This document shows positions 6,350-48,255 of a DNA stretch of 64,000 bases, one piece after another. A model generated the notes under the pieces. It searched no databases. It was not told the DNA's origin and saw nothing but the letters and a program-made list of their open reading frames with translations. The position numbers were made by a program, and so were the translations under genes. The stretch is from a virus: positions 1-64,000 of IMG/VR virus record IMGVR_UViG_3300033489_000005; one strand, 5' to 3'. Position 1 is the first letter of the stretch; each line of letters begins with the position of its first letter.

Positions 6350-9300
6350 TGGGCGGCGGCTCTCAGAATCAGGACACTAGCCAGACGTACACGCCGAACG
6401 CTGAAGCCATGAGCGCGTTCAGGGGCGTCATGAGCGGCGCGCAGGGCGTCGCCAACCGGAACCAGACCTGGAATCCGGCCATGGCGCAGCGCGTCGCCGG
6501 TCAGAACGCCATGCAAACGCAGGGGTATTCCGGCATTCAGGGCCAGCTGGGGCAGTACTCGCCCCAGGTTAACGAGGCCCTTGGAATGACCAGCGCCGCC
6601 GGTCAGAACATCACCGGCGAGGACATTTCCCGTTATCAGAACCCCTACACCCAACAGGTCATAAACGCCACGATGGCCAACGCCCAGCAGCAGCAGGGCG
6701 CAGGCATGGCGAACGTGGTAGGCAACCAGATTGCTCAGAACGCCCAAGGCGGCGACCGGGCGATGCTGCAGAAGGCGCTCACTCAGGGCCAGTACGCCAT
6801 GGCCAACAACCAGACAATCGCCGGGCTGGAGCAGCAGGGCTACAACACCGCGCTCGCCACCGCGCAGGGGGAGAAAGGGCGCCAGCTGCAGGCGGGCATG
6901 GGCCTCATGAGCGAGGCTGGCGCGGCGCAGAATTACAATCTGCAGGGCCTCGGCGCGATGATAGGCGCGGGCGGAGCACAGCAGGGGCAGCAGCAGAACG
7001 AATACAACGCCGCGACCCAGAACGCGACCAGTCAGACCATGTGGCCGATGCAGCTTCAGCAGTGGCTCGCGGGCATTACCGGCTCGATGGGTTCGCTGAT
7101 GGGCGGCACCACCACCGGCACGTCGCAGACAACTGAGCACCCAGGCTTCTACAACTATCTCGGCGCGGGCATGGGCGGCCTGTCGGCGATGTCCGACGAG
7201 CGCGTAAAAGAGAATAAGCGCGAAGTTGGCGAGCTGTTCGACGGTCAGAAGGTTTATGCGTTCAACTATAAGGGCCACCCCACGACCCAACTCGGGTTGA
7301 TGGCGCAGGAAGTTGAGCGCCGTCATCCGGAGTCCGTTGGCCAGACCGAGGACGGCGTAAAAACCGTTCAATACGACATGGCCACCGACCGCGCGGCCAA
7401 GCGCGGCAACTTCGCCGATGGCGGGGCGCCGGGGTTCGGCGGCTCGAACCCATGGGATACGGCGAGCAGCCCGTGGGGCTCGCTTATCCAGAGCGCGCCG
7501 CAGATTCATTCAGGCGGGTTCAACCCGCCGGTCGCCGCCGGTACGGCCCCCGCGCCCATGTCTTCAAAAGATAAGGAACAGCGCGAGCAGGCCCAACAGG
7601 GCAAGCAGGGCGGCCAGGGCATGAAGGATATCTACAACAAATACCTCAACAAAGAGGGAACGGGAACGCCCGGCAGTACGGGAACGCCTTCCACAGCCAA
7701 CGGATGGGAGGCAAAAACCGTGCCTTCCAGCGAACTTGGCGGCTCGACGGATTTGACGGTGACCACCCCCGTTGAGACGGTGAGCGAAAGCACGTCTGGC
7801 CTTGGGAGCATGGGCGCAAGCGCCCCCGCGAGCGCGGCCCCATCGAGCATGATGGGCGCGGCCCCGGCGGGCGCAGGCGCAGCGGCTCCAATAGGAGAGG
7901 CTGCAACCGGGTTCGGCGGCGCGGCTACTGGGGCTGGAGGCGCGAGTCTCGCCAGCACTGGTTCTCTTGGCGCGGCTCTGTCGGCTGGGATGGGCGGCGC
8001 GGGCGCAGCCGGAGCTGCTGGAGCTGGCGCGGCGGGAGCCGGAGCCGCTGGCGCGGCGGGAGCCGGAGCCGCTGGCGCAGGCGCGGCCGGAGCTGCCGGA
8101 GCGGGCGCGGCCGGAGCTGCAGGGGCAGGCACGGCTGCAGCCGGTTCAGCTGCGGCTGCGGGCGCGGCTGGCGCGGGCGGCGCGGCCGGAGGCGGCCTCG
8201 GGGCGCTGATTGGCGCGCTCTTTTCAGACGAGCGCATGAAAGAGAACAAGCGCGTCGTGGGCCGCACGTTCGACGGTCAGAACATCTATGCCTACAACTA
8301 CAAGGGCCATCCCATGACCCAGCTCGGGTTGATGGCGCAGGAAGTGGAGAAGCGTCACCCCGGCTCCGTGGGCGAGCACGGCGGCATGAAGACGGTTCAA
8401 TATGACCGGGCGATTCAGGCGGCGTCCAGGCGCGGCCACTTCGCCAACGGCGGCGACGCGTCCAGCAACGATGATATGCGCCGCCATGCGGAGCGCATGC
8501 TGCATCTGGCGTCCGGCGGCGCGGCGCAGAACTTCGCCGATGGCGGCGAGCCGTTCATCAATCCTGACGAATTTACCTTTGACGCGCCGGAGCCCTATGA
8601 GCCCACAAAACGTGATTATGGCCATTTCGATCCATATGGCGGCGTCTCCGCTAGCGGGAATATAGAGAATATGATTCCCGGCGGGTTTTCAGCAAAACGG
8701 GCATACCGGAGGGAGCAGGCAGACAACGCCTATAATCTGAAAAACCCGGAAGACAGCCAAAAAGACACGACTGAAACACCGCTGGATACGCCAGATATTC
8801 GTGATGGCATGTGGCGCAGTCCGCACGAACAGCGCACGCATTTTGACCCGTACATGGGCAAATTCCCTGTCATGGAGCCCATCGTTCCGCATGAGCAGGT
8901 GAAAACCATGGTCCGCGCGCCAGAGGTTCCTGAACCAGGGGAGCCAAAAGGCCGGGCGCTTCCTGACTATGCGCCAAAACTCTCGCATGAGATGTTATCG
9001 GACCGGCCGCTGACTTCCGCGCCCGTGGCGACCGCGCTTGCGGAAGCGAAGATGGCGCGCAACCAGGGGCTCGACCAGCCTCCGGAGACCATGGCGCGCG
9101 GCCGGTTACCGGCTGAAGGGGCCGGGCAGCGCCCATCGTTCGAAATTCCCAAGTTCCCGGCTGGCGTCGACGTGGCGGACGTCGGCCGCGCCGCGATAAA
9201 CAAAATCACCGACCCCTATGCGGAGGCCCTGCGCGAAAGAGTATCGGATGCTGGCGGCCTGTATGCGCAGGCCGGGAGAGAGGCTCGCGGTCTTGCGCCT

Positions 9301-12168
9301 AATCTGCGCCTCCCCACGCGCGCCGATGTCACGGAGCTTATGCGCTCGGCGCGCGGCGCTGGCGAGATGGCGGCCGATTATGCTTCGCCAGGCTCCCGGA
9401 TGGAGCGCGCGCAGGCCGCAGACGCCGCAGGCGAGTTCAAATGGAACCCGGCTTCCGGCCGCTCGGAATTTATCTCGGGCGAGCAGCTGGCGCGCGAGCA
9501 GGCGGCGAAAGGAACGCCGCGCCTCGATGCAGAGCGCGGGCAAAGCATCCAGCCGGGAACGCCTTTTGAGGGCGGCCCGCCGCTCCCAGAACGCAGGCCT
9601 GCGACTCCGGCCGCCGCCGAACCCGTTCCGCCCATGCCGGAGCGCAATATTGTCGAGCAGTCCAGGCTTGAGGCGGAGCGCGCCCTTGAGGATGAAAAGC
9701 GCGCCAAGCTTCTGCGCTACTTTGAGGCCGCTCAGGATGCAGTGCGTTTAAACGCTCCCGCTGCTGGCGGCGTGACGCCGGAGGCCGCCGCAGAGCGCGG
9801 ACACGCTGACCGCGCGGCCATCATGGACACGCTGAAGCAGTATTTCCCCCATACGCTCGGCGGCGAACCGATTACGCCCGCCGCGCCAGCTGCAGCGCCC
9901 GCAGAAGCGCCGCGCCAGCATGGGCCGGAGGCGTATCCTAAGGAACTCGGGCTCGGCGACGTCGCGCCAACCAAAGTCCATTCTCAGGAACTCACTGATT
10001 TAGAAAAGGACCTGCAGACAAAAGTCGAGCCTTACTCGGCGGCTGTCGGCGCGCCCAAGGCGCAGACTTTCCAGGAACAGCAGCCGGACCGGTACGCGGC
10101 GGGGGCTCAAACCTCCATGACCAAACGGCTTAAGTTTGAGAACGACTTGGGCGGCGTGACGCGGGACACCGGCGGCAACCCATCCATGGGCAATTACGGC
10201 ATCCTCGCCCGCAAGGGCGGCGCGTCTTCAGGAAGCGACTTTTACGACAACTACGGCGAAAAGCTCGGGTTCACCCATGACCCGCGCCATGACCCGTGGG
10301 GGTTCGCCGCCGATTGGAAGCGCGTCGCCAAGGACAACCCGCAAGGGCTGGAGGCCGCAGAGGACGCGTGGCACAACAAGTTCATCAAAGGCTCCGTGCG
10401 CGCCCACGTTCTGAACGCAAATCTCCCCGGAACGCTCGCCGATGACCCGCGCGTGCAGGAGTACTTTCAGGACCGGTACGTGCAGCACGGCACCGGCATC
10501 AGCAAGGACCCGAACGGCCGCAACGGCGCGGGCCGTCTGAAGCAGGCTTGGGCGAAGGCCGAGGGCGATATCCCGACTTTCTTGAAAGAAATGTCGGCCA
10601 TCGACAAGGCCCATATCCGCCACGACTTTGAGACGTATCTGAGCGAGCATCCCGACCACCAGCCGGGCCTTGAAAAGCGCATCAGCAACCGGCTCGCCGG
10701 GGCGCTTGGCGAAAAGGTTCAGCCGGGCGGAACTTCGGAGCAGGTCACCCAGGCGGCTTCCGATAAGAAGGAGACTGCCGCGAACACGCCGAAGTCGGCG
10801 GCCGAGCTGCTCCCGCACGAGCAGGACCAAGTCGGGTTCATCAAGAAAATCATGGGCGGTTGGAACCCGCTCGAAGGCGTCACCGGCCCTGGAAAAGAGG
10901 GAAAAGACAGTTGGAACCCCCTCGGGCTGACGTCGGACCAGCGCCGCAACCTTATGATGACCGGCCTGCAGATGGCGGGCGGCTCGCCGCTGGGCATGCG
11001 GGCGCTCGCGGGCGGCGCGTCCGGCATGCAGGCCGCGCAGCAGATGCAGATGAACGAGCAGAGCATGGGCATCCAGCGCGCTAAGCTGGCGCTTGACGCC
11101 ATGAACCAGCCGAAGTTCTCGCCGGTTCACTGGACCGACTTCATGGGTATGCAGCACGCGGGCTCGATGGACGTGCACAGTGGCGCGATAACCGAGGCCG
11201 GGCAGACTGCGCCCGTGCCAGCAGGCAGCATTGCGCCGGGGACCGTGCAGGCGGCGCCCGAGGCCGGGGGAGCCGGAGCGCCAGGGGCAGGCGCGGCCGA
11301 CCAGCCAACCGGCAACGCTCAGATAGACCAGATGTTCAAGCAGTATCCGGAGGCTCGCGGCACTGTAGAGGGCCTGCTTGACGGCCGGTTCACGCTTCAG
11401 CAAATCCCGACCCGCCAGCGCGCCGGAATGGAAATGGCGGCGAACGCCGTGGCCAGGACGCGCGGCGAGGTCTACGACCCCGTTAAAATTCAGAAGCAGA
11501 GCGACTTTGAGAAGGACTTTTTAAAGCCCGACTCCAAGACCGCAATCCAGGTCGAGAGCCTGAACCGCGCCAGCGAACATATCGGCACCATGATGGGTCT
11601 GAGCGAGCAGCTTGGCGCAAACACCGGGCTCGGCGACTACCTGTCCGGCAAGGCGGCCGACAACATCACCATGATGCGCGACCCCAAGCGCGAACAGTAC
11701 CGGGTTATGGGTCGCGCCATCGCTTCCGAGCTGGCTAAACTGGAGTCCGGCGGCAAGGGCGCGCAGAAGACAACCGAAGAGTGGGAGTCCATGTTCGACC
11801 CGAGCTTGCCGAAGGCGGTCCGGGACGGCAACATCATGCAGGCCTTCAATATCATGAAGGGCAACATGAAAGGGCTCGACCAGAAGTGGATTAACGGCGC
11901 CCGCAGAGGGAAAAACGGACCGACAATCGACTATATGGCCCCTGAAGTGCGGCAGAACATGCACACCGCGCAGCTCAGATATGAGCAGGCGACCGGCCGC
12001 ACGCCGGAAGGGACTAAGTCAACGGTCGAGAGGCCCCCGGCTCCCATTCCTGAAATCCGGGAACAGCTTGGCCGCGCTCTGAAAAAAGCGGATACGCCGG
12101 AGAAAAAGGCGGCTATCCTTGAGCGCGCTAAGAAGTGGGGCGTTTACGGACTGGAGACTCAGCAGTGA
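6346..12168 (+). CDS. giant (1940 aa) internal-virion/ejection-type polyprotein with two peptidase-S74-like intramolecular chaperone domains
   Basis: Uninterrupted ORF. Two homologous segments, SDERVKENKREVGELFDGQKVYAFNYKGHPTTQLGLMAQEVERRHPESV (7192..7425) and SDERMKENKRVVGRTFDGQNIYAYNYKGHPMTQLGLMAQEVEKRHPGSV (8224..8454), match the S74 pattern SDxRxKxN...GxxAQEVexxxPexV. Confidence 0.7.
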   Translation: MMGGGSQNQDTSQTYTPNAEAMSAFRGVMSGAQGVANRNQTWNPAMAQRVAGQNAMQTQGYSGIQGQLGQYSPQVNEALGMTSAAGQNITGEDISRYQNPYTQQVINATMANAQQQQGAGMANVVGNQIAQNAQGGDRAMLQKALTQGQYAMANNQTIAGLEQQGYNTALATAQGEKGRQLQAGMGLMSEAGAAQNYNLQGLGAMIGAGGAQQGQQQNEYNAATQNATSQTMWPMQLQQWLAGITGSMGSLMGGTTTGTSQTTEHPGFYNYLGAGMGGLSAMSDERVKENKREVGELFDGQKVYAFNYKGHPTTQLGLMAQEVERRHPESVGQTEDGVKTVQYDMATDRAAKRGNFADGGAPGFGGSNPWDTASSPWGSLIQSAPQIHSGGFNPPVAAGTAPAPMSSKDKEQREQAQQGKQGGQGMKDIYNKYLNKEGTGTPGSTGTPSTANGWEAKTVPSSELGGSTDLTVTTPVETVSESTSGLGSMGASAPASAAPSSMMGAAPAGAGAAAPIGEAATGFGGAATGAGGASLASTGSLGAALSAGMGGAGAAGAAGAGAAGAGAAGAAGAGAAGAGAAGAAGAGAAGAAGAGTAAAGSAAAAGAAGAGGAAGGGLGALIGALFSDERMKENKRVVGRTFDGQNIYAYNYKGHPMTQLGLMAQEVEKRHPGSVGEHGGMKTVQYDRAIQAASRRGHFANGGDASSNDDMRRHAERMLHLASGGAAQNFADGGEPFINPDEFTFDAPEPYEPTKRDYGHFDPYGGVSASGNIENMIPGGFSAKRAYRREQADNAYNLKNPEDSQKDTTETPLDTPDIRDGMWRSPHEQRTHFDPYMGKFPVMEPIVPHEQVKTMVRAPEVPEPGEPKGRALPDYAPKLSHEMLSDRPLTSAPVATALAEAKMARNQGLDQPPETMARGRLPAEGAGQRPSFEIPKFPAGVDVADVGRAAINKITDPYAEALRERVSDAGGLYAQAGREARGLAPNLRLPTRADVTELMRSARGAGEMAADYASPGSRMERAQAADAAGEFKWNPASGRSEFISGEQLAREQAAKGTPRLDAERGQSIQPGTPFEGGPPLPERRPATPAAAEPVPPMPERNIVEQSRLEAERALEDEKRAKLLRYFEAAQDAVRLNAPAAGGVTPEAAAERGHADRAAIMDTLKQYFPHTLGGEPITPAAPAAAPAEAPRQHGPEAYPKELGLGDVAPTKVHSQELTDLEKDLQTKVEPYSAAVGAPKAQTFQEQQPDRYAAGAQTSMTKRLKFENDLGGVTRDTGGNPSMGNYGILARKGGASSGSDFYDNYGEKLGFTHDPRHDPWGFAADWKRVAKDNPQGLEAAEDAWHNKFIKGSVRAHVLNANLPGTLADDPRVQEYFQDRYVQHGTGISKDPNGRNGAGRLKQAWAKAEGDIPTFLKEMSAIDKAHIRHDFETYLSEHPDHQPGLEKRISNRLAGALGEKVQPGGTSEQVTQAASDKKETAANTPKSAAELLPHEQDQVGFIKKIMGGWNPLEGVTGPGKEGKDSWNPLGLTSDQRRNLMMTGLQMAGGSPLGMRALAGGASGMQAAQQMQMNEQSMGIQRAKLALDAMNQPKFSPVHWTDFMGMQHAGSMDVHSGAITEAGQTAPVPAGSIAPGTVQAAPEAGGAGAPGAGAADQPTGNAQIDQMFKQYPEARGTVEGLLDGRFTLQQIPTRQRAGMEMAANAVARTRGEVYDPVKIQKQSDFEKDFLKPDSKTAIQVESLNRASEHIGTMMGLSEQLGANTGLGDYLSGKAADNITMMRDPKREQYRVMGRAIASELAKLESGGKGAQKTTEEWESMFDPSLPKAVRDGNIMQAFNIMKGNMKGLDQKWINGARRGKNGPTIDYMAPEVRQNMHTAQLRYEQATGRTPEGTKSTVERPPAPIPEIREQLGRALKKADTPEKKAAILERAKKWGVYGLETQQ
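7987..8190 (+). repeat. Ala/Gly low-complexity coding repeat (GAAGAAGAGAAGAG...)
   Basis: Reiterated gccggagc(c/t)gc(t/c)gg units at the DNA level. They encode about 68 aa of (A/G)n between the two S74-like domains. Confidence 0.85.
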
Positions 12169-28415: not shown

Positions 28416-28490
28416 TGGCTGGGGCAGGTGGATTCGAACCACCATAACGCGAGTGATTAGCTCGCCGCCTTACCTGTCAGCCACACCCCA
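28416..28490 (-). tRNA. tRNA with Gln-like scaffold (U1-A72, G73, 3-bp D stem, encoded CCA) but anticodon loop CUAAUCA (formal anticodon AAU)
   Basis: Hand-folded cloverleaf: TGGGGTG/TGCCCCA acceptor, GGTGG-TTCGAAT-CCACC T arm, GCGAG-CTAATCA-CTCGC anticodon arm. Confidence 0.7.
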
Positions 28491-28717
28491 TAACGCCGCG
28501 ACACGAGGCCGGGCGCCGTCTCTGTGGGTCAACGGACCCTCCGCACTGGGCAGCGGTCAGCCCCGGCTTATCGGCGTCAAGACAGGGGGAGAATGAACAA
28601 AAAACTCCCCTGCAACGTGGCGCTCGCTTCCCCCGGCGGGGAATTGGGACCTGGACGCCGGGCGCCTCTCTTGAGGCTCACACGGACAGGGTTAGACCCG
28701 GCGTCCAGGAGGCTGAG

Positions 28718-28805
28718 TGGGCAGGTCAGGATTCGAACCCAAGAACCGCATCAAGCGGGGGCGGATTTACAGTCCGCTGGCGCTCACCACGCGCCACGCC
28801 TACCC
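28718..28805 (-). tRNA. tRNA-Tyr(GTA), type II with long variable arm, no encoded CCA
   Basis: Hand-folded: GGGTAGG/CCTGCCC acceptor, GCGGA-CTGTAAA-TCCGC anticodon arm, CCGC-TTGAT-GCGG variable arm, TTGGG-TTCGAAT-CCTGA T arm. Confidence 0.8.
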
Positions 28806-31425: not shown

Positions 31426-32154
31426 TCAGCTCTTGTTGTGCTCTTCTTTCGGCTTCACCTGCTCAGCGGCGCTGATGGCGCGGTCAAGAAAATCACGGAC
31501 ATTGACCAGCTCGACGTCAACGTGCTCCCAGCTGAACGACTTCGCCATCATGACGCTGCGGTCCATCAGCATCCTGATGTCACGCAGACTTTGAATCAGC
31601 CTGCCGCGCATATGCTCCTCAGGGTTCGGCGCGGCGACGAGCGCCAACAGCTCATCAATAATGGGGGAGGGGGAAGAGGCTCGCCCGGCGGATTCCTTGG
31701 GGGTTATCTCCTCGCGAATCGTCGCTAAGAGGCTGCGTATGTCGCCAGGATTGACAGCGTGGAACTTGATTTCTCCGCTATCAAGAGGGATTTCGAAATA
31801 GGAGCCAAGGGCGTTGTCCGAGGCTGGCTTCGGGCTGGAGGCCTCCAGGTCTGCGGCCTCTATGCTCGCGGCTCCCGCTCCCCAGGGACCATCAACCTTG
31901 GCTTTCAACGCGGCGCGCTCGGCGCTGCCCGGCTCTGAAAAGGGGGAACCGGATATTTCCAGGGGGGCGACTTCATCGGCGGCGCCCTCAACCGGCGCAG
32001 GGCCAAACTTGGGCGCTTTCTCCGCCGCGAGCATGTTTTCCACATATTCGCACCCGAATTTCAGCGCGCTCTCGCGGCTCCGATTGGGGATATCGCAAAC
32101 GCCGCAGTCCTGGTCAACTGCCTTGTAAGCGGGGTTGTAGGTTAGTTTACTCAT
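31426..32154 (-). CDS. hypothetical protein (first gene of the leftward operon)
   Basis: The ATG at 32154 is preceded by GAGAGAG. The track start at 32190 is GTG. Confidence 0.65.
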   Translation of the reverse strand: MSKLTYNPAYKAVDQDCGVCDIPNRSRESALKFGCEYVENMLAAEKAPKFGPAPVEGAADEVAPLEISGSPFSEPGSAERAALKAKVDGPWGAGAASIEAADLEASSPKPASDNALGSYFEIPLDSGEIKFHAVNPGDIRSLLATIREEITPKESAGRASSPSPIIDELLALVAAPNPEEHMRGRLIQSLRDIRMLMDRSVMMAKSFSWEHVDVELVNVRDFLDRAISAAEQVKPKEEHNKS

Positions 32155-32247
32155 GTTTTCTCTCTCTGATGACGAATTATCTTCGTTCACCGATTACATA
32201 GTCCGAATAGGTTCGGACCGCAAGGGGGAAATCGGATTCGGTGAATT

Positions 32248-32276
32248 TTTATTGAACTGGAATAAACCCACGTCAA
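32248..32276 (-). promoter_or_regulatory. candidate sigma70-type promoter for the leftward replication operon
   Basis: Minus strand: TTGACG, 17 nt, AATAAA, with an A-rich upstream element. It lies about 60-90 nt upstream of the first minus-strand gene. Confidence 0.4.
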
Positions 32277-32310
32277 GCTTTTTATTTGCATACAGAGACA
32301 AAAGGGAGGG

Positions 32311-32457
32311 TTGACCGCGCGAGCCGGGCGGGCCTAACCTGCTGCCTCGCATCTGGGTTCTCGAACCCTGGCGCATGGATAGGGAGGCCACCCGAATAGC
32401 TGCTGGAAGGCTTCCCGGCGGCTCTCCATGCCTTTCCTAAGAAGCCGGGAGAAGCCC
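32311..32457 (+). promoter_or_regulatory. conserved promoter (TTGACC-N17/18-TAACCT) plus structured leader, family member 1
   Basis: Shares the TTGACC -35, a gccggg-containing spacer, and a leader with stem-ATAGGG-N-CCCGAA-...-stem-TTTCC with the copies at 35906, 36730 and 38657. Confidence 0.5.
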
Positions 32458-32679
32458 ATGGACCACCGCACCCGTACATGCAGAGATTGTAGTTTTTGGG
32501 AACAGAGTAGCCCAAAAAGTCTCTATGGGGTATGCGTAAGAAATTCTCCGCGCCCACAGCAAGCTGTACATGGTGAAGACGTGTGTGAACACAGAACATT
32601 TTGGCCTCTCACTGAACAGCATGAGAGGTGTGGAGATTTTGTGTTTGAGACCATAAGACCCGTCATAACATTTCCATAA
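32458..32679 (+). CDS. small Cys-containing protein (hypothetical)
   Basis: MDHRTRTCRDCSFWEQ...GVCVRNSP...WPLTEQHERCGDFV. RBS GGGAGAAG. It starts at an internal ATG of track ORF 32428. Confidence 0.6.
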   Translation: MDHRTRTCRDCSFWEQSSPKSLYGVCVRNSPRPQQAVHGEDVCEHRTFWPLTEQHERCGDFVFETIRPVITFP

Positions 32680-32681
32680 AG

Positions 32682-32720
32682 AAAAAACCCCCAGACCTGG
32701 AACTCTGGGGGTTACTTTAT
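32682..32720 (+). terminator. terminator/attenuator hairpin
   Basis: Stem AACCCCCAGA / TCTGGGGGTT flanked by an A-run and ACTTTATGCTT, between the small gene and the primase gene. Confidence 0.5.
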
Positions 32721-32743
32721 GCTTGCAACAACAAGGAGTTACT

Positions 32744-35533
32744 ATGAATTCATCTCGGCAGGAGACAAACCTTGCCTGCGCTCTTAGGCTCGCAAAGGCG
32801 GGGTACTCGGTATTTCCGCTGCAATATCCCAGGTTGTCAAGCAGTTTCACGATAGAAGCGCCTCTGCAACCCGGAAAATACACATGTTCATGCCATGCGA
32901 CCCGTTTTGGAGTCCCTTTAAGCGCTGCAGAGCGCAGTAGGGGGCTTACGCATGAGTTCGACCGGGGTTGTTGTGAACAAATCGGAAAACACCCTCTGTG
33001 GATAAGGGGCTTGTTCGAGTCCGGCCACAACGACGCGACCAACGACGTCGCCAAAATCACCAAGGCGTGGACGAAACACCCGGACGCCAACATCGGCATC
33101 GGTGGAATTTTCCATAACCCAGACGGCTCGACCTCGCGAATCATCGCAATCGACGTCGACGGCAACGCCGACCCGGAAAAGGACGGAGAGGCGACTATCG
33201 CCGCTCTTGAACAAAAGTATGGGCCTCTGCCGGTTACGTGTGAAGTCGTGTCGGGGCGCGAAGTCCCCGGCCGCGACATCGGCGGCCGTCACCTCATTTT
33301 CAGGATACCGGACGACTGGGGCGGAGTGTTTAAACGCACTCTCGGACCGGGCGTCGACATCAAATGCGCCGGGCTCGGCTACGTCGCCGCGCCCCCCTCG
33401 CTCCACAAGTCCGGCAAGCGTTACGCCTGGACGGCGACGCCGGACGGGGGGCCGGTCACGGCTCCGGAGTGGCTGCTGACCGAGGCGAGCCGCCCGGCGC
33501 AGGCCTCCGGCAAGAGCGGCCCGTCAACTCCCGTGGGCGACCCCTACGAGCCGGGCTCGATGCTGTCGAACGGCCTGCACGGCATCAGCTGGCAGGAGAC
33601 GGAGACCGGAGACCTGGAGGCTGTCGTGGGGGCTGTCATGGCGCTCGACGGCGACTGTGATTTCCGCCTGCGCGGCCAGCGCAAGTTCATGTCTCCCGAC
33701 GTTTTCAAGGAAATCCACTGGTCTCTGCGCGCCCTGCAGGACTGGTTCGCCCACGACCCCCGCGTCAGCACGCTGGCGTTCGCCCACGCGCATCAGTTCG
33801 CCGGGCACGACGAGCAGCGCTATTTCTCCACCCTGTGGAATTACCGGCGACCCAACGGCCGCGAATTCGGCCGTGGGCATCTTTTCGCCGCTGCTGACCG
33901 CGCGGCGCCGGGCTGGAGGCTGAGGTTGCCGGACGCCGCGCGCCGCGCGGCCCGGCGACTGCATGACGACGGTTCAGCTGTCGACATCCCAGCATGGATT
34001 TCCCCCGGCGCAATGGCCGGCGCCGGGGGCTCGCCTTCCGCGCGGCCAACGGCCGGCATGGACGGCGCGGGAAGCCCGGCGGCTCCGTACCCATCCGCCG
34101 GGGGGCCAGAGGGCGCAGATGGCCCAACACTCTCTCATGGCAACCCGGCGCGCTCGGCGCAGATTTTCCGTGAAACCCAAGCAAAGACGCTGATATGGGC
34201 GAACGGGGACTATCTGAACTGGGAAAACGGAGCCTATGCCGCCGAGGAAGTCGACGGCGTCGCTTCTGACGTCCACAAATTCCTCAAGCGGGCGAAAACA
34301 CGCACCAAATCCGAGACGGGGGAAGAGAAGATCAGCGCGTTCATCCCGCTCAACAAAGATATAACGGAGGTGACAGGGGCGCTGAAGCGGGAATACCACA
34401 AACCTCCGATGGACAAGCCACGGTGGATGAACGGAGTCACCGGCCCTGACCCCCGGAACATCATTTCATTTCCGAATGGGCTTCTCGACATAACGACAGG
34501 CGTTCTGTACGCGCCGAACCCAAATTTTTTCACCTACAACGCTCTTGGGTTCAAATATGACCCGGACGCCCCGGAGCCGGTCAACTTCCTCGCGTTCCTT
34601 GAATCGATTTTCGCCCCTGACCAAGTTAGAGAGGCTATCCCGCTGCTTCAGAAAATGTTCGGGTATCTGGTATCTGGTGATACCAGCATGCAGAAGATTT
34701 TTATGATTATAGGTGAGACCAGGAGCGGTAAAGGTACTCTTTCAGGAGTTATCAAGCATCTACTTGGTGAGCCTAACTATAATTCCTCAACCCTAAGTAG
34801 ACTTGACTCAAAATTTTCTATGGAATCGATGATAGGTAAGAGTATTACTGTCATTCCTGACGCACATGTTGGGAAAAAATCCGATTCTCAAGTAGTTGTT
34901 GAGATACTTAAGTCTATTTCTGGAGAAGACACTCAAAGTGTCGAGCGCAAATGGAAGGCTGATTGGACTGGAGTCTTGGGAACTCGCCTATTAATTCTAG
35001 CTAATAGAGCCCCAAAACTTATGGACACGTCGCAGGCTCTTGCTAATCGGCTCGTCGTATTCACAACGCCAAATTCTTTTGAAGGGCGTGAAGATTATAA
35101 GCTGGCGGAGAAGCTGGCGGCAGAAGCCCCAGGAATCTTGAATTGGGCGCTGCAGGGGCTGAAAGACCTCCGGGCGGATGGGCGCTTCATTCTTCCGAGC
35201 TGGGCTTCCGCCAGCCAGAGAGAAGTCGCCGAACTCGGCTCGACGGTTCAGGCGTTCTTCAACGAGTGCTGCGAATTCAGCCCGGCCGGAAAAGTCGGAA
35301 AGCAAGCGCTGTATGAAAAATATGTGGCGTGGGCGCTAGCGGCGCGCGAGCCCGTGACTCTGTCGAGACGTCAGTTTGCGGCTGACCTGTACAGTATTGG
35401 GCGCGGGAAAATCACAGGTCGTAAGGATGAAGTGAAGTTGCCGGTGACTGATCACACCGGCAAACCAGTGCGCGATAAAGACGGGAAACCGGAGAGAGCT
35501 ACAGCCTATGGTGGTATTTTAATCAGAATTTAG
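32744..35533 (+). CDS. bifunctional primase-polymerase / D5-P4-type helicase (NTPase)
   Basis: The N-terminal prim-pol-like region has AGYSVFPL, IIAIDVDG and GYVAAPPSLHKSGKRYAW. The C-terminal part has the P-loop GETRSGKGT and Walker B VIPDAHV. RBS AAGGAG lies before the ATG at 32744. Confidence 0.85.
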   Translation: MNSSRQETNLACALRLAKAGYSVFPLQYPRLSSSFTIEAPLQPGKYTCSCHATRFGVPLSAAERSRGLTHEFDRGCCEQIGKHPLWIRGLFESGHNDATNDVAKITKAWTKHPDANIGIGGIFHNPDGSTSRIIAIDVDGNADPEKDGEATIAALEQKYGPLPVTCEVVSGREVPGRDIGGRHLIFRIPDDWGGVFKRTLGPGVDIKCAGLGYVAAPPSLHKSGKRYAWTATPDGGPVTAPEWLLTEASRPAQASGKSGPSTPVGDPYEPGSMLSNGLHGISWQETETGDLEAVVGAVMALDGDCDFRLRGQRKFMSPDVFKEIHWSLRALQDWFAHDPRVSTLAFAHAHQFAGHDEQRYFSTLWNYRRPNGREFGRGHLFAAADRAAPGWRLRLPDAARRAARRLHDDGSAVDIPAWISPGAMAGAGGSPSARPTAGMDGAGSPAAPYPSAGGPEGADGPTLSHGNPARSAQIFRETQAKTLIWANGDYLNWENGAYAAEEVDGVASDVHKFLKRAKTRTKSETGEEKISAFIPLNKDITEVTGALKREYHKPPMDKPRWMNGVTGPDPRNIISFPNGLLDITTGVLYAPNPNFFTYNALGFKYDPDAPEPVNFLAFLESIFAPDQVREAIPLLQKMFGYLVSGDTSMQKIFMIIGETRSGKGTLSGVIKHLLGEPNYNSSTLSRLDSKFSMESMIGKSITVIPDAHVGKKSDSQVVVEILKSISGEDTQSVERKWKADWTGVLGTRLLILANRAPKLMDTSQALANRLVVFTTPNSFEGREDYKLAEKLAAEAPGILNWALQGLKDLRADGRFILPSWASASQREVAELGSTVQAFFNECCEFSPAGKVGKQALYEKYVAWALAAREPVTLSRRQFAADLYSIGRGKITGRKDEVKLPVTDHTGKPVRDKDGKPERATAYGGILIRI

Positions 35534-35552
35534 CTATTTTTAGCTAAATCCT

Positions 35553-35890
35553 TGTCCGGTAGGAAACCTGTCAATGTCCGGTATCTTTTTTGGGAAAGAA
35601 ACCGGACATGAGCGCAAGCCCGCTGTTAAAATCGTAAGATTTTTTAGCGGGCTTTTTATTGTCCGGTATCTTGCCCCGTGTCCGGCCGCCGTCCGGCTCC
35701 TAGTCCGGCTCTAAGCTATTGAATTTAAAGAAATGTCCGTCTGTCCGGTATTTTTTTCTTGATACTCAAAAAATATATAAAAAAGGTTTATATGTTAAAA
35801 TTATGTAAAAATATAATAGGGTTTATGTATAAATTATAAGGTGTATATAGGGTGGTATTTAAATAGGGTTTTGAACCGGACACCGGACAC
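35553..35890. repeat. iteron cluster (TGTCCGGTATCTT and shorter GTCCGG units, both orientations) flanking an AT-rich block; origin-like
   Basis: Copies at 35553, 35575, 35601(inv), 35660, 35678, 35691, 35703, 35733(variant), 35742, 35875(inv) and 35883(inv). The AT-rich stretch spans about 35756-35870. Confidence 0.6.
35617..35660 (+). terminator. rho-independent terminator after the primase-helicase gene
   Basis: Stem AGCCCGCT / AGCGGGCT followed by TTTTTATT. The loop is unusually long at 21 nt. Confidence 0.5.
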
Positions 35891-35905
35891 GGAGCCGATT
35901 GTGGG

Positions 35906-36035
35906 TTGACCGGACGCCGGGCGTCAGCCATAAGGGGTGGGCGGCGGATAGGGCGACGGCCTGAAACACCCGCTCTTATGCTTTCTGGCAGGTTTTCCGC
36001 CGCCTCATCTCACAGAAAGCATAGAGGAAAGCAGA
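35906..36035 (+). promoter_or_regulatory. conserved promoter (TTGACC-N17-CATAAG) plus structured leader, family member 2
   Basis: Leader: GGCGGCGG(35940-47)-ATAGGG-...-CCTGAAA-...-CCGCCGCC(35997-36004). Confidence 0.5.
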
Positions 36036-36689
36036 ATGTCTGGTGAAATAGTCCCATTCGGTAAGTATAAAGATCAGCCTGTTGAGGTTCTACTTGCTGA
36101 CCAACAATATGTTGGCTGGCTGATAAATCAGCCATGGCTGAAAGATGTAAAATTTCAGGCGATATATAATACTATCGTCAATTTCACGTCTCCCCCTGAA
36201 GACACCCCCGAACATAACGCCATGCAGGCCCGGTTTCTTGTTCCTATTGTCAGGAGGGCGATTTATGCATTTGTGGCGCTTAGAGAAGTTGGTCCTGACG
36301 AAAAACAGATGGTATTGCGCGATTGTTCCGTTAAGTTTGAGTGTAACGGATGGGATGTGGCCTTAAATCCAGCTGATTGCTTTGATAACTGGGCTACTGG
36401 CGTGGCTATCGAGATAAAACCTTCAGTGGGTGACGATTTTCCAGCGGTCTTGCGCCAGATGAACGCGAGAAAACCTATCCCAAGAACTGATAGGCCATAT
36501 AATATTGGAACATGGAATCCAAAATACAGGGTTTTGTATACAGATAAGTTCACCTGTTCTAACTTGACATTAGAGCAGGTGCGGGAGATGTTTAAACACT
36601 CTGGCGTTACGCTTGTATTATCTAGCGAAATAACAGATTTTGTTGTGGGTAACGAGAGCCGTCTTAGGAGTTTTCTCCTAGATGAATGA
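36036..36689 (+). CDS. hypothetical protein with DUF3820-like N-terminus
   Basis: The N-terminus PFGKYKDQPVEVLLADQQYVGWL matches the PFGKYKG...Y..W motif from memory. 217 aa, lower GC. Confidence 0.55.
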   Translation: MSGEIVPFGKYKDQPVEVLLADQQYVGWLINQPWLKDVKFQAIYNTIVNFTSPPEDTPEHNAMQARFLVPIVRRAIYAFVALREVGPDEKQMVLRDCSVKFECNGWDVALNPADCFDNWATGVAIEIKPSVGDDFPAVLRQMNARKPIPRTDRPYNIGTWNPKYRVLYTDKFTCSNLTLEQVREMFKHSGVTLVLSSEITDFVVGNESRLRSFLLDE

Positions 36690-36729
36690 AAAATGGTTAG
36701 GGTATCGCCGAGGCCCTTAAGAACCGGGA

Positions 36730-36856
36730 TTGACCGGAGGCCGGGAACCGGCTATCCAGGACCAGACGCGGCTAGGGGTTGCTCCCGAAAACCGTGACCT
36801 TGACGGGTCGCCGCGTTTTCCCACACAAGGACAACAGCCGAAAGGAGGCTGTTCAG
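36730..36856 (+). promoter_or_regulatory. conserved promoter (TTGACC-N17-TATCCA) plus structured leader, family member 3
   Basis: Leader: ACGCGGC(36766-72)-TAGGGG-...-CCCGAAAA-...-GCCGCGT(36810-16)-TTTCCC. Confidence 0.5.
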
Positions 36857-37594
36857 ATGACAGCCATCATTCCATTCCATTTTGAATCGTCCGAAGTCCG
36901 CGTTCTCGACCAGGACGGCGAGCCATGGTTCGTGCTTGCCGACGTGTGTTCGGTTCTGGAGATCGGACATACCGCCACAGCGGCGCTGCGCCTTGAGGAC
37001 GACGAGAAAGCTGGTGTGGTTTTGACCGACACCAGCTCTAACGGCGTATCACAGAAGCGGGAATTTACCATCATCAACGAGTCCGGCCTTTGGAATCTCG
37101 TTATCCGCTCTGATAAGCCCCAGGCGAAAACCTTTCGCAAGTGGCTCACATCCGAGGTTATCCCTCAAATCAGGAAAACCGGAGCCTATGCCCGGCCCCT
37201 GACCCCCGGCGAACAGCTCCTCGCCAGCGTGCAGCTTTCCGTCGAGCTGGAGCGCCGGACCGCCGCCATCGAGGCCAAACAGGTTCAGACGGCCGGTATT
37301 GCCCATCAGGCGCTTGCTGTCGCTCAACAGGTCCAGGTACAGTTAGGTGTTCATGAGACAAGCGAAGAGCTTATGTACACCGTTTCTCACTACTGCGAGC
37401 TTATGGGAGTGCGGTGGCCTGTAGATACTCTGTCTATGCTTGGTAAAAGGGCCGTGGCCCTTTGTGAGTACCGTGGCGTTCTCTATGAGCGCATCAGCAA
37501 TAAGCCATACGGAAAAGTCAATCTCCATCGCGTAAGTATTCTTCGTGATGTATTTGACCGTTATGTGGCTGAACTCGAAGATTACGCGAGCTAA
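36857..37594 (+). CDS. Bro-N domain protein (antirepressor-like)
   Basis: IIPFHFESSEVRVLDQDGEPWFVLADVCSVLEI...GLWNLVIRSDKPQAKTFRKWLTSEVIPQIRKTGAY is a classical Bro-N pattern. RBS AAGGAGG. Confidence 0.75.
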   Translation: MTAIIPFHFESSEVRVLDQDGEPWFVLADVCSVLEIGHTATAALRLEDDEKAGVVLTDTSSNGVSQKREFTIINESGLWNLVIRSDKPQAKTFRKWLTSEVIPQIRKTGAYARPLTPGEQLLASVQLSVELERRTAAIEAKQVQTAGIAHQALAVAQQVQVQLGVHETSEELMYTVSHYCELMGVRWPVDTLSMLGKRAVALCEYRGVLYERISNKPYGKVNLHRVSILRDVFDRYVAELEDYAS

Positions 37595-37596
37595 CC

Positions 37597-37773
37597 ATGA
37601 CCAAAAAATACAAACCTTGCCCATCCTGCAAGCAGAAGGGTCCTGAACCTTGCTCTGCTTGTTCAGGAACCAAAAAAGACGCCAAGGGGGGTAAATGCCC
37701 CAAGTGTGGCGGCTGGGGCTACCAGGACTGCGCCACCTGCAACGGCAATGGCCAGATTGTGGTGAGCGGCTGA
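37597..37773 (+). CDS. DnaJ-type zinc-finger miniprotein (58 aa)
   Basis: MTKKYKPCPSCKQKG..CSACSGTKK...CPKCGGWG..CATCNGNG: four CxxC(xGxG) units. It is below the track cut-off. Confidence 0.55.
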   Translation: MTKKYKPCPSCKQKGPEPCSACSGTKKDAKGGKCPKCGGWGYQDCATCNGNGQIVVSG

Positions 37774-37967
37774 TGGGCGACATCCACGGAGGCCGGAAAA
37801 TCTGCCCCAGCTGCGCGGGCGGGAAGCTCGTGAAATGCCCGGCGTGCGATGGCTGGGGCCATCCGGAGAACGACGGGTACAGGGTCTGCCCGACCTGTTC
37901 GGGCGGCGGTTCTGTGAGCTGCCCGACCTGCGGCGGCGCGGGGACTGTGACCGGAGGGAAATCTTAA
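37773..37967 (+). CDS. DnaJ-type zinc-finger miniprotein (64 aa), paralogue of 37597..37773
   Basis: MGDIHGGRKICPSCAGGK..CPACDGWG...CPTCSGGG..CPTCGGAG. TGATG overlap with the upstream stop. Confidence 0.55.
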   Translation: MGDIHGGRKICPSCAGGKLVKCPACDGWGHPENDGYRVCPTCSGGGSVSCPTCGGAGTVTGGKS

Positions 37968-38047
37968 TGGGAAACCGTGTCGTTTATATTTGGCTAGCTG
38001 TGTTGTTGATGTTCGTGGTCCTGGCGCTTATGGGCTACAACCCGTAA
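37967..38047 (+). CDS. 26-aa hydrophobic peptide
   Basis: MGNRVVYIWLAVLLMFVVLALMGYNP with a TAATG overlap. Confidence 0.35.
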   Translation: MGNRVVYIWLAVLLMFVVLALMGYNP

Positions 38048-38080
38048 ACGCTTCGAAGAACTGTTAATGGAGATTTTAAA

Positions 38081-38212
38081 ATGGGAAATCCGATGCAGAA
38101 TGCAGCCGGTGACGATATTGTGGAATCGTTTCCTGGCGGTAAACCCCGTCCGGCTCCGGCTCCGGCTCCGGCTCCGCAGCCTGCCCCGCAGCCAAAACCC
38201 CAGGGGAAGTGA
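38081..38212 (+). CDS. 43-aa Pro/Ala-rich mini-ORF containing a (CCGGCT)4 microsatellite
   Basis: MGNPMQNAAGDDIVESFPGGKPRPAPAPAPAPQPAPQPKPQGK. The alternative reading is the 111-aa track ORF 38067..38402. Confidence 0.3.
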   Translation: MGNPMQNAAGDDIVESFPGGKPRPAPAPAPAPQPAPQPKPQGK

Positions 38213-38325
38213 TGGCGAAGAAACCCAGAACGCCGGGAAAGCCGGGAACCGGCGGCGGTCCCGGCGGCCCGAAAAACCCGACAGACTACCCCCGGCCGAC
38301 GCCGCCGCGAAAACCGGGGGCGTGA
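38212..38325 (+). CDS. 37-aa basic Pro/Gly-rich mini-ORF
   Basis: MAKKPRTPGKPGTGGGPGGPKNPTDYPRPTPPRKPGA, coupled by TGATG at both ends. Confidence 0.3.
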   Translation: MAKKPRTPGKPGTGGGPGGPKNPTDYPRPTPPRKPGA

Positions 38326-38402
38326 TGAGCAATCCAACGTTTTTGCTGTGGGTGTTCGTGGGGTTCGTGATTGTGTTTGTGGCCGCGTCGCTCTGCTTGT
38401 GA
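38325..38402 (+). CDS. 25-aa hydrophobic peptide
   Basis: MSNPTFLLWVFVGFVIVFVAASLCL. Confidence 0.35.
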   Translation: MSNPTFLLWVFVGFVIVFVAASLCL

Positions 38403-38415
38403 AAGGAAAATCTGA

Positions 38416-38493
38416 ATGAAAATCCAGCTTTTATGGGTTCTCGTCGCCCTGCTGTCGATTGCCGCTTTTGCGATGGTGGTAGCGGGCTCCTGA
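38416..38493 (+). CDS. 25-aa hydrophobic peptide
   Basis: MKIQLLWVLVALLSIAAFAMVVAGS, preceded by GAAAGGAAAA. Confidence 0.35.
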   Translation: MKIQLLWVLVALLSIAAFAMVVAGS

Positions 38494-38656
38494 ACGGCGC
38501 CGGACAAGCTAAGTAGTTATCCGGAAAGGGGTAAAATGCCGGTTCTCGCTTCCGAATCGAAAAAATTCGAGGCCTCGAAATTGGGAGTATTTCAACCGGA
38601 GATATCCATCCCCAAAATTGGGGATGGGTACTAAAAGTTGTAATAGGCCATAGGTC

Positions 38657-38785
38657 TTGACTCGGGCGCCGGGAACCGGTTAACAACAGGCGGCGCGGAT
38701 AGGCTGATCCCCGAAAGACAGATACTCTGGCTGTTTGCCGCGCCGCCTTCCCTCCCAGAGCCAACAGCAACAAGAGGCTGTTCGC
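38657..38785 (+). promoter_or_regulatory. conserved promoter (TTGACT-N17/18-TAACAA) plus structured leader, family member 4
   Basis: Leader: GGCGGCGCGG(38689-98)-ATAGG-...-CCCCGAAA-...-CCGCGCCGCC(38738-47)-TTCCC, a perfect 10-bp closing stem. Confidence 0.5.
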
Positions 38786-39979
38786 ATGACCAGCAAAAAA
38801 TTTCCCCCGATTCCCCCGTACTATCCCGCTCCGTCCGAGGGATGGACTGTTCCGCAGCCGGGCGCCGGGTATCCTCCGCTTCCAGGCAACCCGATTCCGC
38901 GCCGCACGCCGCCGCCCCTTCCGCCCGCTTTTGAGCAGCAGGCGGGCGGGTATGCGGCTCCATCTTCCCCAATGGAAGGGGCAAGAACAGGTCTTGACCC
39001 CTGGCGGTCGTCAAACGTCGCCCAAAAGGACGGTATGAACCCAATCCAGAAATTTACGCATGCGCTGTCCACCGGCTACATGATGGAGCTTTCCGCCATT
39101 ATCGGCGCGGATGGCTCGCATTGGTTTCTCGCCTCGGAAACGGCGCGGGCGCTGGGATACCTTAATCCGCGAAAGGCGATTATTGACCACTGCAAGCATG
39201 CACAACTTGTAGGGGGCGTAACGAATCGTGACCCCATACCAGGGGTTGCATCGCTAGATCCCCAGACTAAAATTATCCCGGAGGGGGATGTAAACCGCCT
39301 GATTGCCCGGAGCCGGTTACCGGCTGCCGTCGAGATACAGGATTGGTGGTTTGATGAGGTTATCCCGACAATTCGCAGGACAGGGGGATATGGGGTTCAG
39401 AAGCCTCTGACGCCGCGCCAACTCGCTCAGATGGTGATCGACGCCGAGAACCGCGCCGACGCTGAGAACGCCGCCCGGCTCGCCGCCGAGGCCCGGCATC
39501 TGGTCGCCGAGCGGGATAATCACCGTCTGGAGCAAATTTCAAGCTATCAGAATGTGATTATCAAGCAACAGATGGAGGATTTGACCGGACTCCATATGGT
39601 TACAAACACTTCCGATTCTTTTGCTATTCGTACCGTAGTAAAGCTCCTCGGGCAGAAAGAGAAACTATTCAATAAGTGGCTTCGTGAAAAGAAGTTTACG
39701 TTCCCTTTCTACACAGAATCTGGGGAATTACGAGGCTATCAACCATACGCCGACAAGATTTCTGCCGGGTATATGGTTCTCCGCTGGCATAATGACGATT
39801 TTGTCGGGTATGACACTCGTGATCGGGGATGTAACCGCCCCGCATCCAGGTTTTTGAAGGCTGGGATTATTCACGTTGCCGGGCGGGCAGACCTTCCCTA
39901 CCCACGAACGCATGAGCTGTATGCTGTCAGGGACCGGATACTGAAAACCGGGAATCCATTTGAGATAGACGAGCCGTAA
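38786..39979 (+). CDS. Bro-N plus KilA-C/ANT-type antirepressor-like protein with Pro-rich N-terminus
   Basis: The Bro-N-like core has HWFLASETARALGY...DVNRLIARSRLPAAVEIQDWWFDEVIPTIRRTGGY. The C-terminal part (IRTVVKLLGQKEKLFNKWLREKKF...) is ANT/KilAC-like. Confidence 0.7.
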   Translation: MTSKKFPPIPPYYPAPSEGWTVPQPGAGYPPLPGNPIPRRTPPPLPPAFEQQAGGYAAPSSPMEGARTGLDPWRSSNVAQKDGMNPIQKFTHALSTGYMMELSAIIGADGSHWFLASETARALGYLNPRKAIIDHCKHAQLVGGVTNRDPIPGVASLDPQTKIIPEGDVNRLIARSRLPAAVEIQDWWFDEVIPTIRRTGGYGVQKPLTPRQLAQMVIDAENRADAENAARLAAEARHLVAERDNHRLEQISSYQNVIIKQQMEDLTGLHMVTNTSDSFAIRTVVKLLGQKEKLFNKWLREKKFTFPFYTESGELRGYQPYADKISAGYMVLRWHNDDFVGYDTRDRGCNRPASRFLKAGIIHVAGRADLPYPRTHELYAVRDRILKTGNPFEIDEP

Positions 39980-48178: not shown

Positions 48179-48255
48179 TGCGGGATAGAGAAGTGGCCCA
48201 TCTCGTCGGTCTCATAAACCGGAAACCGGCAGTTCGAATCTGCCTCCCGCTCCCA
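48179..48255 (+). tRNA. tRNA(CAT), Met/initiator-like, with encoded CCA
   Basis: Hand-folded: GAGA/TCTC D stem, TCGGT-CTCATAA-ACCGG anticodon arm, GGCAG-TTCGAAT-CTGCC T arm, acceptor TGCGGGA/TCCCGCT with a 1:72 U-U mismatch, then C-CCA. Confidence 0.75.

Follow-up and report, generated by a model that had tools for sequence, protein, structure and literature searches.

The int-alpA RNA motif (Rfam RF02996; Weinberg et al. 2017, PMC5737381) is a curated family found in E. coli and Klebsiella islands, in many proteobacterial elements, and in metagenomic phages. A literature search found no functional study of it. Here we describe four promoter-plus-leader modules (copies 1–4) in a 64,000-nt stretch of viral DNA (the window; positions 1 to 64,000 of IMG/VR record IMGVR_UViG_3300033489_000005), all located on its plus strand within positions 32311 to 38785. 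By sequence comparison, all four leaders are copies of the int-alpA three-way junction RNA, in which the loop of the third hairpin (L3) covaries both with a nearby site in the 3′ flank and with the ribosome-binding site (RBS).

Two groups of described RNAs pair a loop next to an RBS. In the IncI-alpha/IncB rep mRNAs (PK-repZ/PK-repBA), the loop of an upstream hairpin pairs beside the downstream RBS, and the resulting pseudoknot decides translation; activation depends on a leader peptide being translated, and an antisense RNA counteracts it. The preQ1-II/III and SAM-II/V riboswitches are compact folds of the 5′ untranslated region (5′ UTR) in which a pseudoknot engages or adjoins the Shine–Dalgarno (SD) sequence. 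The int-alpA leaders are like the rep mRNAs in their predicted loop-to-RBS-side pairing, whereas the rep mRNAs have no three-way junction, no decoy duplicate of the target site, and no sequence relation to int-alpA. With the riboswitches they have in common conserved junction bases and a predicted pseudoknot near the SD sequence in the 5′ UTR. In contrast to riboswitches, the genes downstream of int-alpA are mutually unrelated and not metabolic, and the int-alpA core matches no riboswitch family in Rfam. A third comparison is the HK022 put RNA, which consists of two side-by-side stems and binds the zinc-binding domain of RNA polymerase (PMC9378689). Like the leaders in the window, it is a structured cis RNA of ∼60–70 nt that starts phage early transcripts. 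Unlike int-alpA, it has no fixed relation to a start codon, and int-alpA is a junction closed by a helix, P1.

Canonical int-alpA members lie 8–15 nt after the stop codon of an integrase gene and have been found in satellite-like islands, among them one at 470995–478367 of the E. coli ET670 chromosome (L368) and three further ones (L405, L409, L377). The gene order of the L368 type is int, motif, a variable cargo gene, AlpA, a KilAC antirepressor, an Icd-like gene, and a DUF927 primase-like gene. Such islands often adjoin a tRNA gene, and the gene behind the motif differs between similar islands, as expected for a cargo hotspot. The copies in the window share with canonical members the junction with its covarying P1, the UAG(G)/C(C)GAAA bases, a P3 loop that matches the 3′ flank, and a pyrimidine-rich linker. 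They differ in setting: this is a phage of ∼70 kb with its own DNA polymerase and primase genes, unlike the canonical islands, and it carries four copies, an unusual number for one genome, each with a sigma-70-like promoter of its own in front. Copies 1 and 2 have a longer P3 than canonical members, and copy 1 has an extra 5′ hairpin (P0). Because canonical members often lack their own promoter, the 5′-terminal position is specific to the phage copies. Searches by tblastn with the island integrase and AlpA found no integrase or AlpA gene in the window, and the setting for which int-alpA was named is absent here; the neighbors are a primase gene, Bro-N genes, and others of no recognized kind. 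That neighborhood is a naming context and not a structural criterion.

Four leaders with the int-alpA junction

An earlier note on this DNA, made from the sequence alone, had described four conserved promoters followed by structured leaders of common architecture. Its coordinates for the −35 boxes, stems, and start codons (Table 1) were all verified in the sequence 32200–39000, and two of the four units do encode Bro-N proteins, as it had stated. Across the 64 kb, on either strand, the pattern TTGAC[CT]..GCCGGG has only four matches, which are the four copies. The core TAGG..CC.GAA occurs seven times in the window; the closing stems measure 7, 10, 9, and 11 bp in copies 1–4 and 5 bp at the remaining three sites. 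Since 22% of all TAGG sites have a 7-bp stem (4.5% have one of at least 9 bp), a stem of that length is not rare, and the assignment of copy 1 therefore rests on its orthologues and not on its own stem. The folding energies of the leaders are likewise unremarkable compared with shuffled sequences (z −0.3 to −2.1), so that the case for structure rests on comparison and covariation.

The proposal that the leaders hold a conserved structured RNA was borne out, although the RNA is not new: the Rfam search suggested at the time returned int-alpA. Against the family’s gathering threshold of 35.8 bits, copy 3 scored 39.2 bits (36765–36830), whereas copy 4 (31.2 bits, 38692–38760) and copy 2 (25.9 bits, 35941–36016) fell below it, and copy 1 was not listed by the Rfam model at E≤10. 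The orthologue of copy 4 in the related contig L240 scored 37.2 bits, above the threshold. As for copy 1, its P2 core GGGAG..CACCC is also present in members above the threshold, and 12 of 16 scanned metagenome loci with this core pass it.

We gathered outside members by a pattern scan (11 genome examples), from a Klebsiella phage record (one example), and from metagenomes (∼22 further examples sharing the copy 1 P2 core GAUAGGGAG..CACCCGAA). From 27 of these, 12 genome and 15 metagenome sequences, we built a covariance model, R2; this phage and its relatives contributed none of them. In the window R2 ranks the four copies first to fourth: copy 1 with 33.1 bits (E 1.7e-6, the best match), copy 3 with 32.8, copy 4 with 29.4, and copy 2 with 28.2 bits (E 3.7e-5). 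The next match, with both strands searched and filters off, is a plain palindrome of 17.6 bits, and the two covariance models found no further int-alpA copies in the window. All four copies and all 34 compared members have the junction bases UAG(G) behind P1 and C(C)GAAA behind P2, in columns that are invariant in the member alignments A7 and A8. The predicted fold runs from P1 through UA to a short hairpin P2 (GG..CC) and, past GAAA, to a hairpin P3. The architecture described earlier thus stands for the shared closing stem and the junction, whereas its “variable insert” is a third helix, P3.

Related phage contigs were reached through primase homologues. Other routes gave little: megablast of 30–42 kb against phage records had no match, a primase search in IMG/VR gave one distant match only, and a protein-pattern scan of metagenome contigs found nothing. 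Orthologues of copy 1 lie upstream of the primase gene in five contigs (L239, L240, L242, L243, L246). L240 and L243 each carry an orthologue of copy 4, ahead of the Bro-N/ANT gene, and L242 carries a partial one of copy 2. In these homologous regions the pairing is kept by compensatory changes, P1 of copy 1 for example changing from GCAUGGA/UCCAUGC to GAGUGGA/UCCAUUC or GUGAA/UUCAC. The differing stems of the four copies, which the earlier note took as covariation, proved to be just that for P1 in shuffle tests. Over 22 distinct sequences, with the register chosen per sequence, 96% of P1 cells are paired and 8 of 8 pairs have changed on both sides; P1 scores 1.04 for covariation, compared with 0.22 for shuffled sequences, and 0 of 500 shuffles scored as high. 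An unfitted MAFFT alignment of 27 independent members gave 95.8% paired cells and a score of 0.579 against 0.156 shuffled, with slid-partner controls at or below 0.19. P2 is short and mostly invariant, with a few flips, among them CCC/GGG in L252 and G-C to A-U in the L242 orthologue of copy 2. MAFFT misaligned the 3′ halves of the four copies, for which a two-sequence seed model was used instead; in a later alignment one N was inserted in junction J3/1 to fix the register.

The promoters turned out to be less distinctive than the leaders. The “conserved promoter family” of the earlier note holds for the −35 and −10 boxes, which orthologues keep, but not for the spacer word gccggg. All five copy 1 orthologues retain TTGAC[CG]-N18-TAAC[CT]T with varying spacers; in the L242 orthologue of copy 2 the −35 box and the spacing are retained while the spacer sequence has changed; and of the copy 4 orthologues (L240 at 15476 and L243 at 5504, 9–10/12), L243 has a different spacer. 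Because spacers differ completely in orthologues that keep both boxes, gccggg is not a functional element, and the promoters reduce to ordinary sigma-70-like −35/−10 boxes. Every copy and orthologue in the phage group matches the sigma-70 consensus at 8–10 of 12 positions; a random position reaches at least 8/12 with a probability of 0.023. The matched boxes put the predicted +1 at the first bases of P1 in copies 2–4 and their orthologues, or of P0 in copy 1. P0 is restricted to primase-type copies, whose orthologues have a hairpin of different sequence in the same place. Three further ideas about these regions were dropped. An ECF-type GGAAC promoter, which copies 1 and 2 lack, would put the transcription start within P1; a sigma-dependent pause at TAGGG fails for lack of a T at position 6; and IMG/VR matches to the promoter words TTGACCGGNNGCCGGG and GCCGGGAACCGGNTA (>230 loci) were chance only, with no motif behind them.

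Pairing of the P3 loop and distance to the start codon

In 20 of 22 leaders, L3 (the apical loop of P3) complements a site 5–17 nt past P1, the proximal site, and the pairing occurs in at least 12 different sequence versions. In all four copies L3 matches the 3′ flank over 5–11 nt. Compared with random windows of the same loci, the L3/proximal match has a Fisher combined p of 3e-14 (1.4e-5 for the four window copies alone), and that of copy 2 was equalled in none of ∼2000 random windows. The T/C-rich run seen earlier in the leaders is present, but it is the linker to this pseudoknot partner. Orthologous leaders have entirely different L3 and site sequences and have kept the complementarity, their L3 words including AUUACCCGU, CACCC, UCCAUC, CCUUUCA, and UCUCU; canonical pairs include CCUUCA:UGAAGG, ACUUCA:UGAAGU, CCCUG:CAGGG, and GCCUCAC:GUGAGGC. 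In the Rfam model, the final four positions (AgGG) are complementary to the conserved CCuU in its P3 loop, so the curators of Rfam may already be aware of the proximal pairing.

A second L3-complementary site lies at the SD sequence or in the spacer behind it in 17 of 20 leaders; among independent leaders the count is 14 of 21. The doubled word is GAAGCC in copy 1, GAAAGCA in copy 2, and UUGAAGG in canonical members. Among the orthologues of copy 1, L246 keeps both sites and L239, L240, and L243 have other L3/site pairs; those of copy 4 have CCUUUCA:UGAAAGG plus GAAAGG (L240) and UCUCU:AGAGA plus UUCUC:GAGAA (L243). To allow for the purine-rich nature of RBSs, L3 was also compared with the windows of other leaders. 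A match of at least 5 nt to the RBS window was found for 72% of leaders with their own window and 10% with those of others (Mann–Whitney p 7e-18); for the proximal window the figures were 64% and 3.9% (p 4e-17). The two L3 duplexes are predicted to be about equally stable, at −6.9 and −7.9 kcal/mol. These random-window and cross-pairing nulls replaced a column-wise pair count for the pseudoknot, which was dropped because it is circular. A role of the pyrimidine tail as anti-SD sequence was dropped as well; the specific covarying match comes from the P3 loop.

The junction also keeps its distance from the gene that follows. From the end of P1 to the start codon there are 23–39 nt in 19 of 22 leaders and 20–44 nt (median 31) in 21 further independent leaders. 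The genes themselves are unrelated: a 73-aa Cys-rich protein before the primase, a 217-aa protein of no known kind, Bro-N and Bro-N/ANT proteins, ORF6N/C, DUF6387, and many unknowns. In relatives that lack the 73-aa gene, an open reading frame (ORF) of 25–28 codons begins at the same distance. The window thus presents int-alpA outside the integrase/alpA setting, four times in one genome and on unrelated genes, and together with ∼40 other instances it reveals a three-way covariation of loop, decoy site, and RBS at a fixed spacing to the start codon.

A candidate translational switch and its rivals

Since the start codon lies at a fixed distance whatever the gene, we read the element as a cis-acting translational switch; the family-wide junction, the complementarity of L3 to decoy and RBS, and the spacing together point to cis control of translation initiation. 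Among the candidate functions listed in the earlier note, a riboregulator fits best. In its specific form, with the int-alpA copies as a cis-acting two-state gate on initiation, we consider the proposal evenly balanced between right and wrong. In copies 2–4 the element would make up roughly the whole 5′ UTR of a transcript from a sigma-70-type promoter, and L3 would serve as an anti-RBS sequence. The proximal site, which is adjacent and transcribed first, would hold L3 in a pseudoknot and so leave the RBS free; L3 on the RBS would block initiation, and the two pairings would exclude each other. In variants with a single site (L239, L240, L264), the pseudoknot itself would cover the RBS.

Often the RBS appears to occupy a small hairpin loop; in copies 3 and 4, the hairpins at 36836–36854 and 38766–38783 have the form ACAGC(C)-loop-(G)GCUGU with the SD sequence in the loop. 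An alternative partner for GGCUGU in copy 3 is the ACAGCC that directly follows the ATG. Equivalents are present in L243 and L240.

As for what would set such a switch, Pfam searches of the neighboring genes revealed no recognizable regulator near the copies. The phage has no int, no alpA, and no recognizable nearby regulator, and the trigger or partner is therefore probably supplied by the host, as a ligand, a protein, temperature, or ribosome traffic. Ribosomes that terminate on int in the islands would extend into P1, hinting at a link between the element and upstream translation.

A broader reading, which we offer tentatively and think rather doubtful as a whole, is that int-alpA is a riboswitch-like translational switch and not a small RNA (sRNA), whose junction would sense a host-derived signal and set L3 on decoy or RBS. 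It would then serve phages, satellites, and islands as a portable cassette for the timing of early, antirepressor, and cargo genes, and the copies here would form a four-gene regulon. Confirmation of the switch mechanism itself would turn int-alpA from an sRNA without an assigned role into a portable gate on translation in mobile elements, with the four natural variants as ready test cases for mutation.

Several points weigh against the switch. Complementarity is the whole of the evidence for the pseudoknot and for switching, and the statistics of the pseudoknot use loops predicted by RNAfold, which is their weak point. No signal or partner for the proposed switch was found. L3 matches the RBS over only 4 nt in copies 3 and 4, which for each of them is at chance level. 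The L242 orthologue of copy 1 and the leader L322 have no start codon within 45 nt. Nested minimum-free-energy folds of full leaders do not always keep the junction, and a simple sigma-70 scan calls none of the promoters, whose −10 boxes are all weak. Finally, Rfam types int-alpA as “Gene; sRNA”, and the U-rich run after P1 in the family consensus could be a terminator.

We consider two rivals unlikely, and to the same degree. The first is processive antitermination of the put type, in which the nascent junction would bind RNA polymerase and bring about read-through in early operons. As with putL, the int-alpA copies are promoter-proximal in phage early units (PMC9378689), and RNA antiterminators are known in integrative elements (PMC11658703). 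Nevertheless, the fold is unlike the two-stem put, and antitermination leaves unexplained both the 20- to 44-nt spacing and the complementarity of L3 to its own RBS. Canonical members lie just past an integrase stop codon and before single cargo genes, and units 2–4 contain no internal terminator-like site. The only anatomical feature on its side is a terminator-like hairpin (32686–32713) between the 73-aa ORF and the primase gene; taken as a whole, the put/nut-like element envisaged in the earlier note finds no support in the anatomy of the units and has no relation to terminators.

The second is protection of the 5′ end, by which P1 would pair the first transcribed nucleotides and shield the mRNA from 5′-end-dependent decay. 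It would account for a predicted +1 at the first P1 base in copies 2–4 and their orthologues, and for another hairpin at the 5′ end of copy 1. A simple hairpin would be enough for this purpose, however, so the junction bases and the L3/site covariation go unexplained, and canonical members are internal to transcripts or lack a recognizable promoter. Protection could be a secondary benefit in this phage.

Less probable again is a trans-acting sRNA, with a junction of ∼60 nt released to act on other targets. The Rfam type and the U-rich tail after P1 in the consensus are in its favor, but the tails of the phage copies are mixed C/U without a terminator, the start codon follows at a fixed short distance, and in the cross-pairing control each L3 matches its own leader and not those of others.

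The remaining two we regard as very improbable. A loading site for a protein of the Q or Pseudomonas aeruginosa AlpA type, with a functional gccggg dyad in the spacer and the leader as target, would fit the GC-rich spacer dyads of copies 2–4 and has a precedent in a binding element between −35 and −10 (PMC9371919). The comparison of orthologues largely refutes such a spacer element, in that the spacer differs in the orthologous promoters of copies 1, 2, and 4 while boxes and RNA are kept; furthermore, the spacer of copy 2 looks more like the iterons of the adjacent putative origin, and neither an AlpA homologue (tblastn) nor a Pfam match among the neighboring genes was found. A self-cleaving ribozyme or hammerhead relic would share with int-alpA the type I helix order, GAAA between helices II and III, and the clustering of bacterial hammerheads near integrases and in prophages, with multiple copies flanking cargo genes (PMC3088659), but the CUGANGA half of the core and the defined cleavage site are absent, every copy has nothing but UA between P1 and P2, Rfam searches gave no hammerhead match, and cleavage is not expected. 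Every rival leaves the RBS-linked constants unexplained or conflicts with the orthologues.

Feature coordinates and surroundings of the modules

Table 1. Coordinates of the four modules and of genes that follow them (positions are those of the window)
Feature	Position	Strand	Details
Copy 1 promoter	32311..32340	+	TTGACC 32311-16, N18, TAACCT 32335-40; score 8/12
Copy 1 extra 5′ hairpin P0	32355..32368	+	GGGUU/AACCC; minimum-free-energy fold
Copy 1 int-alpA junction	32373..32431	+	P1 32373-79/32425-31, then UA
Copy 1 P2 and P3	P2 32382-84/32391-93; P3 32399-406/32415-22	+	P2 GGG/CCC; GAAUA between P2 and P3
Copy 1 L3	32409..32414	+	GGCUUC; complements GAAGCC at 32441-46 and 32451-56
Copy 1 sites	32441..32456	+	proximal GAAGCC 32441-46, SD GGGAG 32447-51, second GAAGCC 32451-56; ATG 32458
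First gene of unit 1	32458..32679	+	73-aa Cys-rich protein; 54% identity to L246 orthologue
Primase-helicase gene, next in unit 1	32744-35533		domains Prim-Pol/D5_N/DUF5906
Copy 2 promoter	35906..35934	+	TTGACC, N17, CATAAG; score 9/12
Copy 2 int-alpA junction	35939..36005	+	P1 35939-48/35996-36005 (core quoted earlier 35940-47/35997-36004)
Copy 2 P2 and P3	P2 35951-54/35959-62; P3 region 35968-95	+	GAAAC between them; P3 region long
Copy 2 L3	35977..35987	+	UAUGCUUUCUG; 11-nt Watson-Crick complement of 36013-23; UGCUUUC within it also matches 36027-33
Copy 2 sites	36013..36033	+	proximal CAGAAAGCAUA 36013-23, SD GAGGA 36024-28, second GAAAGCA 36027-33; ATG 36036
Copy 3 promoter	36730..36758	+	TTGACC, N17, TATCCA; score 8/12; predicted +1 ~36765, first P1 base
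Copy 3 int-alpA junction	36764..36818	+	P1 36764-72/36810-18 (core quoted earlier 36766-72/36810-16)
Copy 3 P2 and P3	P2 36775-78/36783-86; P3 36792-95/36803-06	+	GAAAA between them
Copy 3 L3	36798..36802	+	CCUUG; pairs with CAAGG 36826-30; CCUU matches AAGG 36842-45
Copy 3 sites	36826..36848	+	proximal CAAGG 36826-30, SD AAGGAGG 36842-48; ATG 36857
Copy 4 promoter	38657..38686	+	TTGACT, N18, TAACAA
Copy 4 int-alpA junction	38688..38748	+	P1 38688-98/38738-48 (core quoted earlier 38689-98/38738-47)
Copy 4 P2 and P3	P2 38702-03/38711-12; P3 38718-21/38731-34	+	P2 GG/CC; GAAAG between P2 and P3
Copy 4 L3	38725..38730	+	CUCUGG; pairs with CCAGAG 38755-60 (p=0.018); CUCU matches AGAG 38773-76
Copy 4 sites	38755..38777	+	proximal CCAGAG 38755-60, SD AAGAGG 38772-77; ATG 38786
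Bro-N/ANT gene of unit 4	38786-39979		

Upstream of copy 1, the region 32190–32310 is a control region conserved among relatives, located between a leftward operon (254-aa gene at 31426–32190) and the copy. Its minus strand has a likely leftward promoter, TTGACG-N17-AATAAA, and a hairpin, GUCCGAA..UUCGGAC. The hairpin at 32686–32713, between the 73-aa ORF and the primase start, has a stem of 10 bp and the loop CCUGGAAC and is terminator-like on both strands. At the equivalent place, relatives have a covarying hairpin with the loop CUGGAC (L239 ∼9835–9870, L240 ∼9930–9965, L243 ∼795–830), which lies inside the conserved 25- to 28-codon ORF (M.ATL.KNLS.P.WTPEG.DRLGF).

Directly after the primase-helicase gene, at 35550–35900, an AT-rich stretch is surrounded by at least 10 copies of TGTCCGGT(A), which occur in both orientations; this iteron region is probably a replication origin. 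A terminator following the primase-helicase gene has its stem at 35616–24/35646–54 and a T-run. The copy 2 promoter overlaps an iteron-like word at 35909–20, and L242 has the same layout.

After the first Bro-N gene, at 37597–37967 and 38081–38330, there are two small ORFs with CxxCxGxG repeats (DnaJ zinc finger-like) and also Pro/Ala-rich mini-ORFs; L243 has CxxC ORFs of a similar kind. Three tRNA genes are present in the window, at 28416–28490(−), 28717–28805(−), and 48179–48255(+), for Ile (anticodon aat), Tyr, and Met. Near the tRNA genes of relatives there are sub-threshold matches to YrlA (Y RNA-like; 56.7 and 47.2 bits vs. 69), located at 6258–6391(−) in L240 and 5869–6004(−) in L239, and none in the window. 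The source gene calls place a 105-aa ORF at 32282–32599(−), over copy 1 and the start of the 73-aa gene; because the plus-strand 73-aa ORF is conserved in L246, the minus-strand call is probably spurious.

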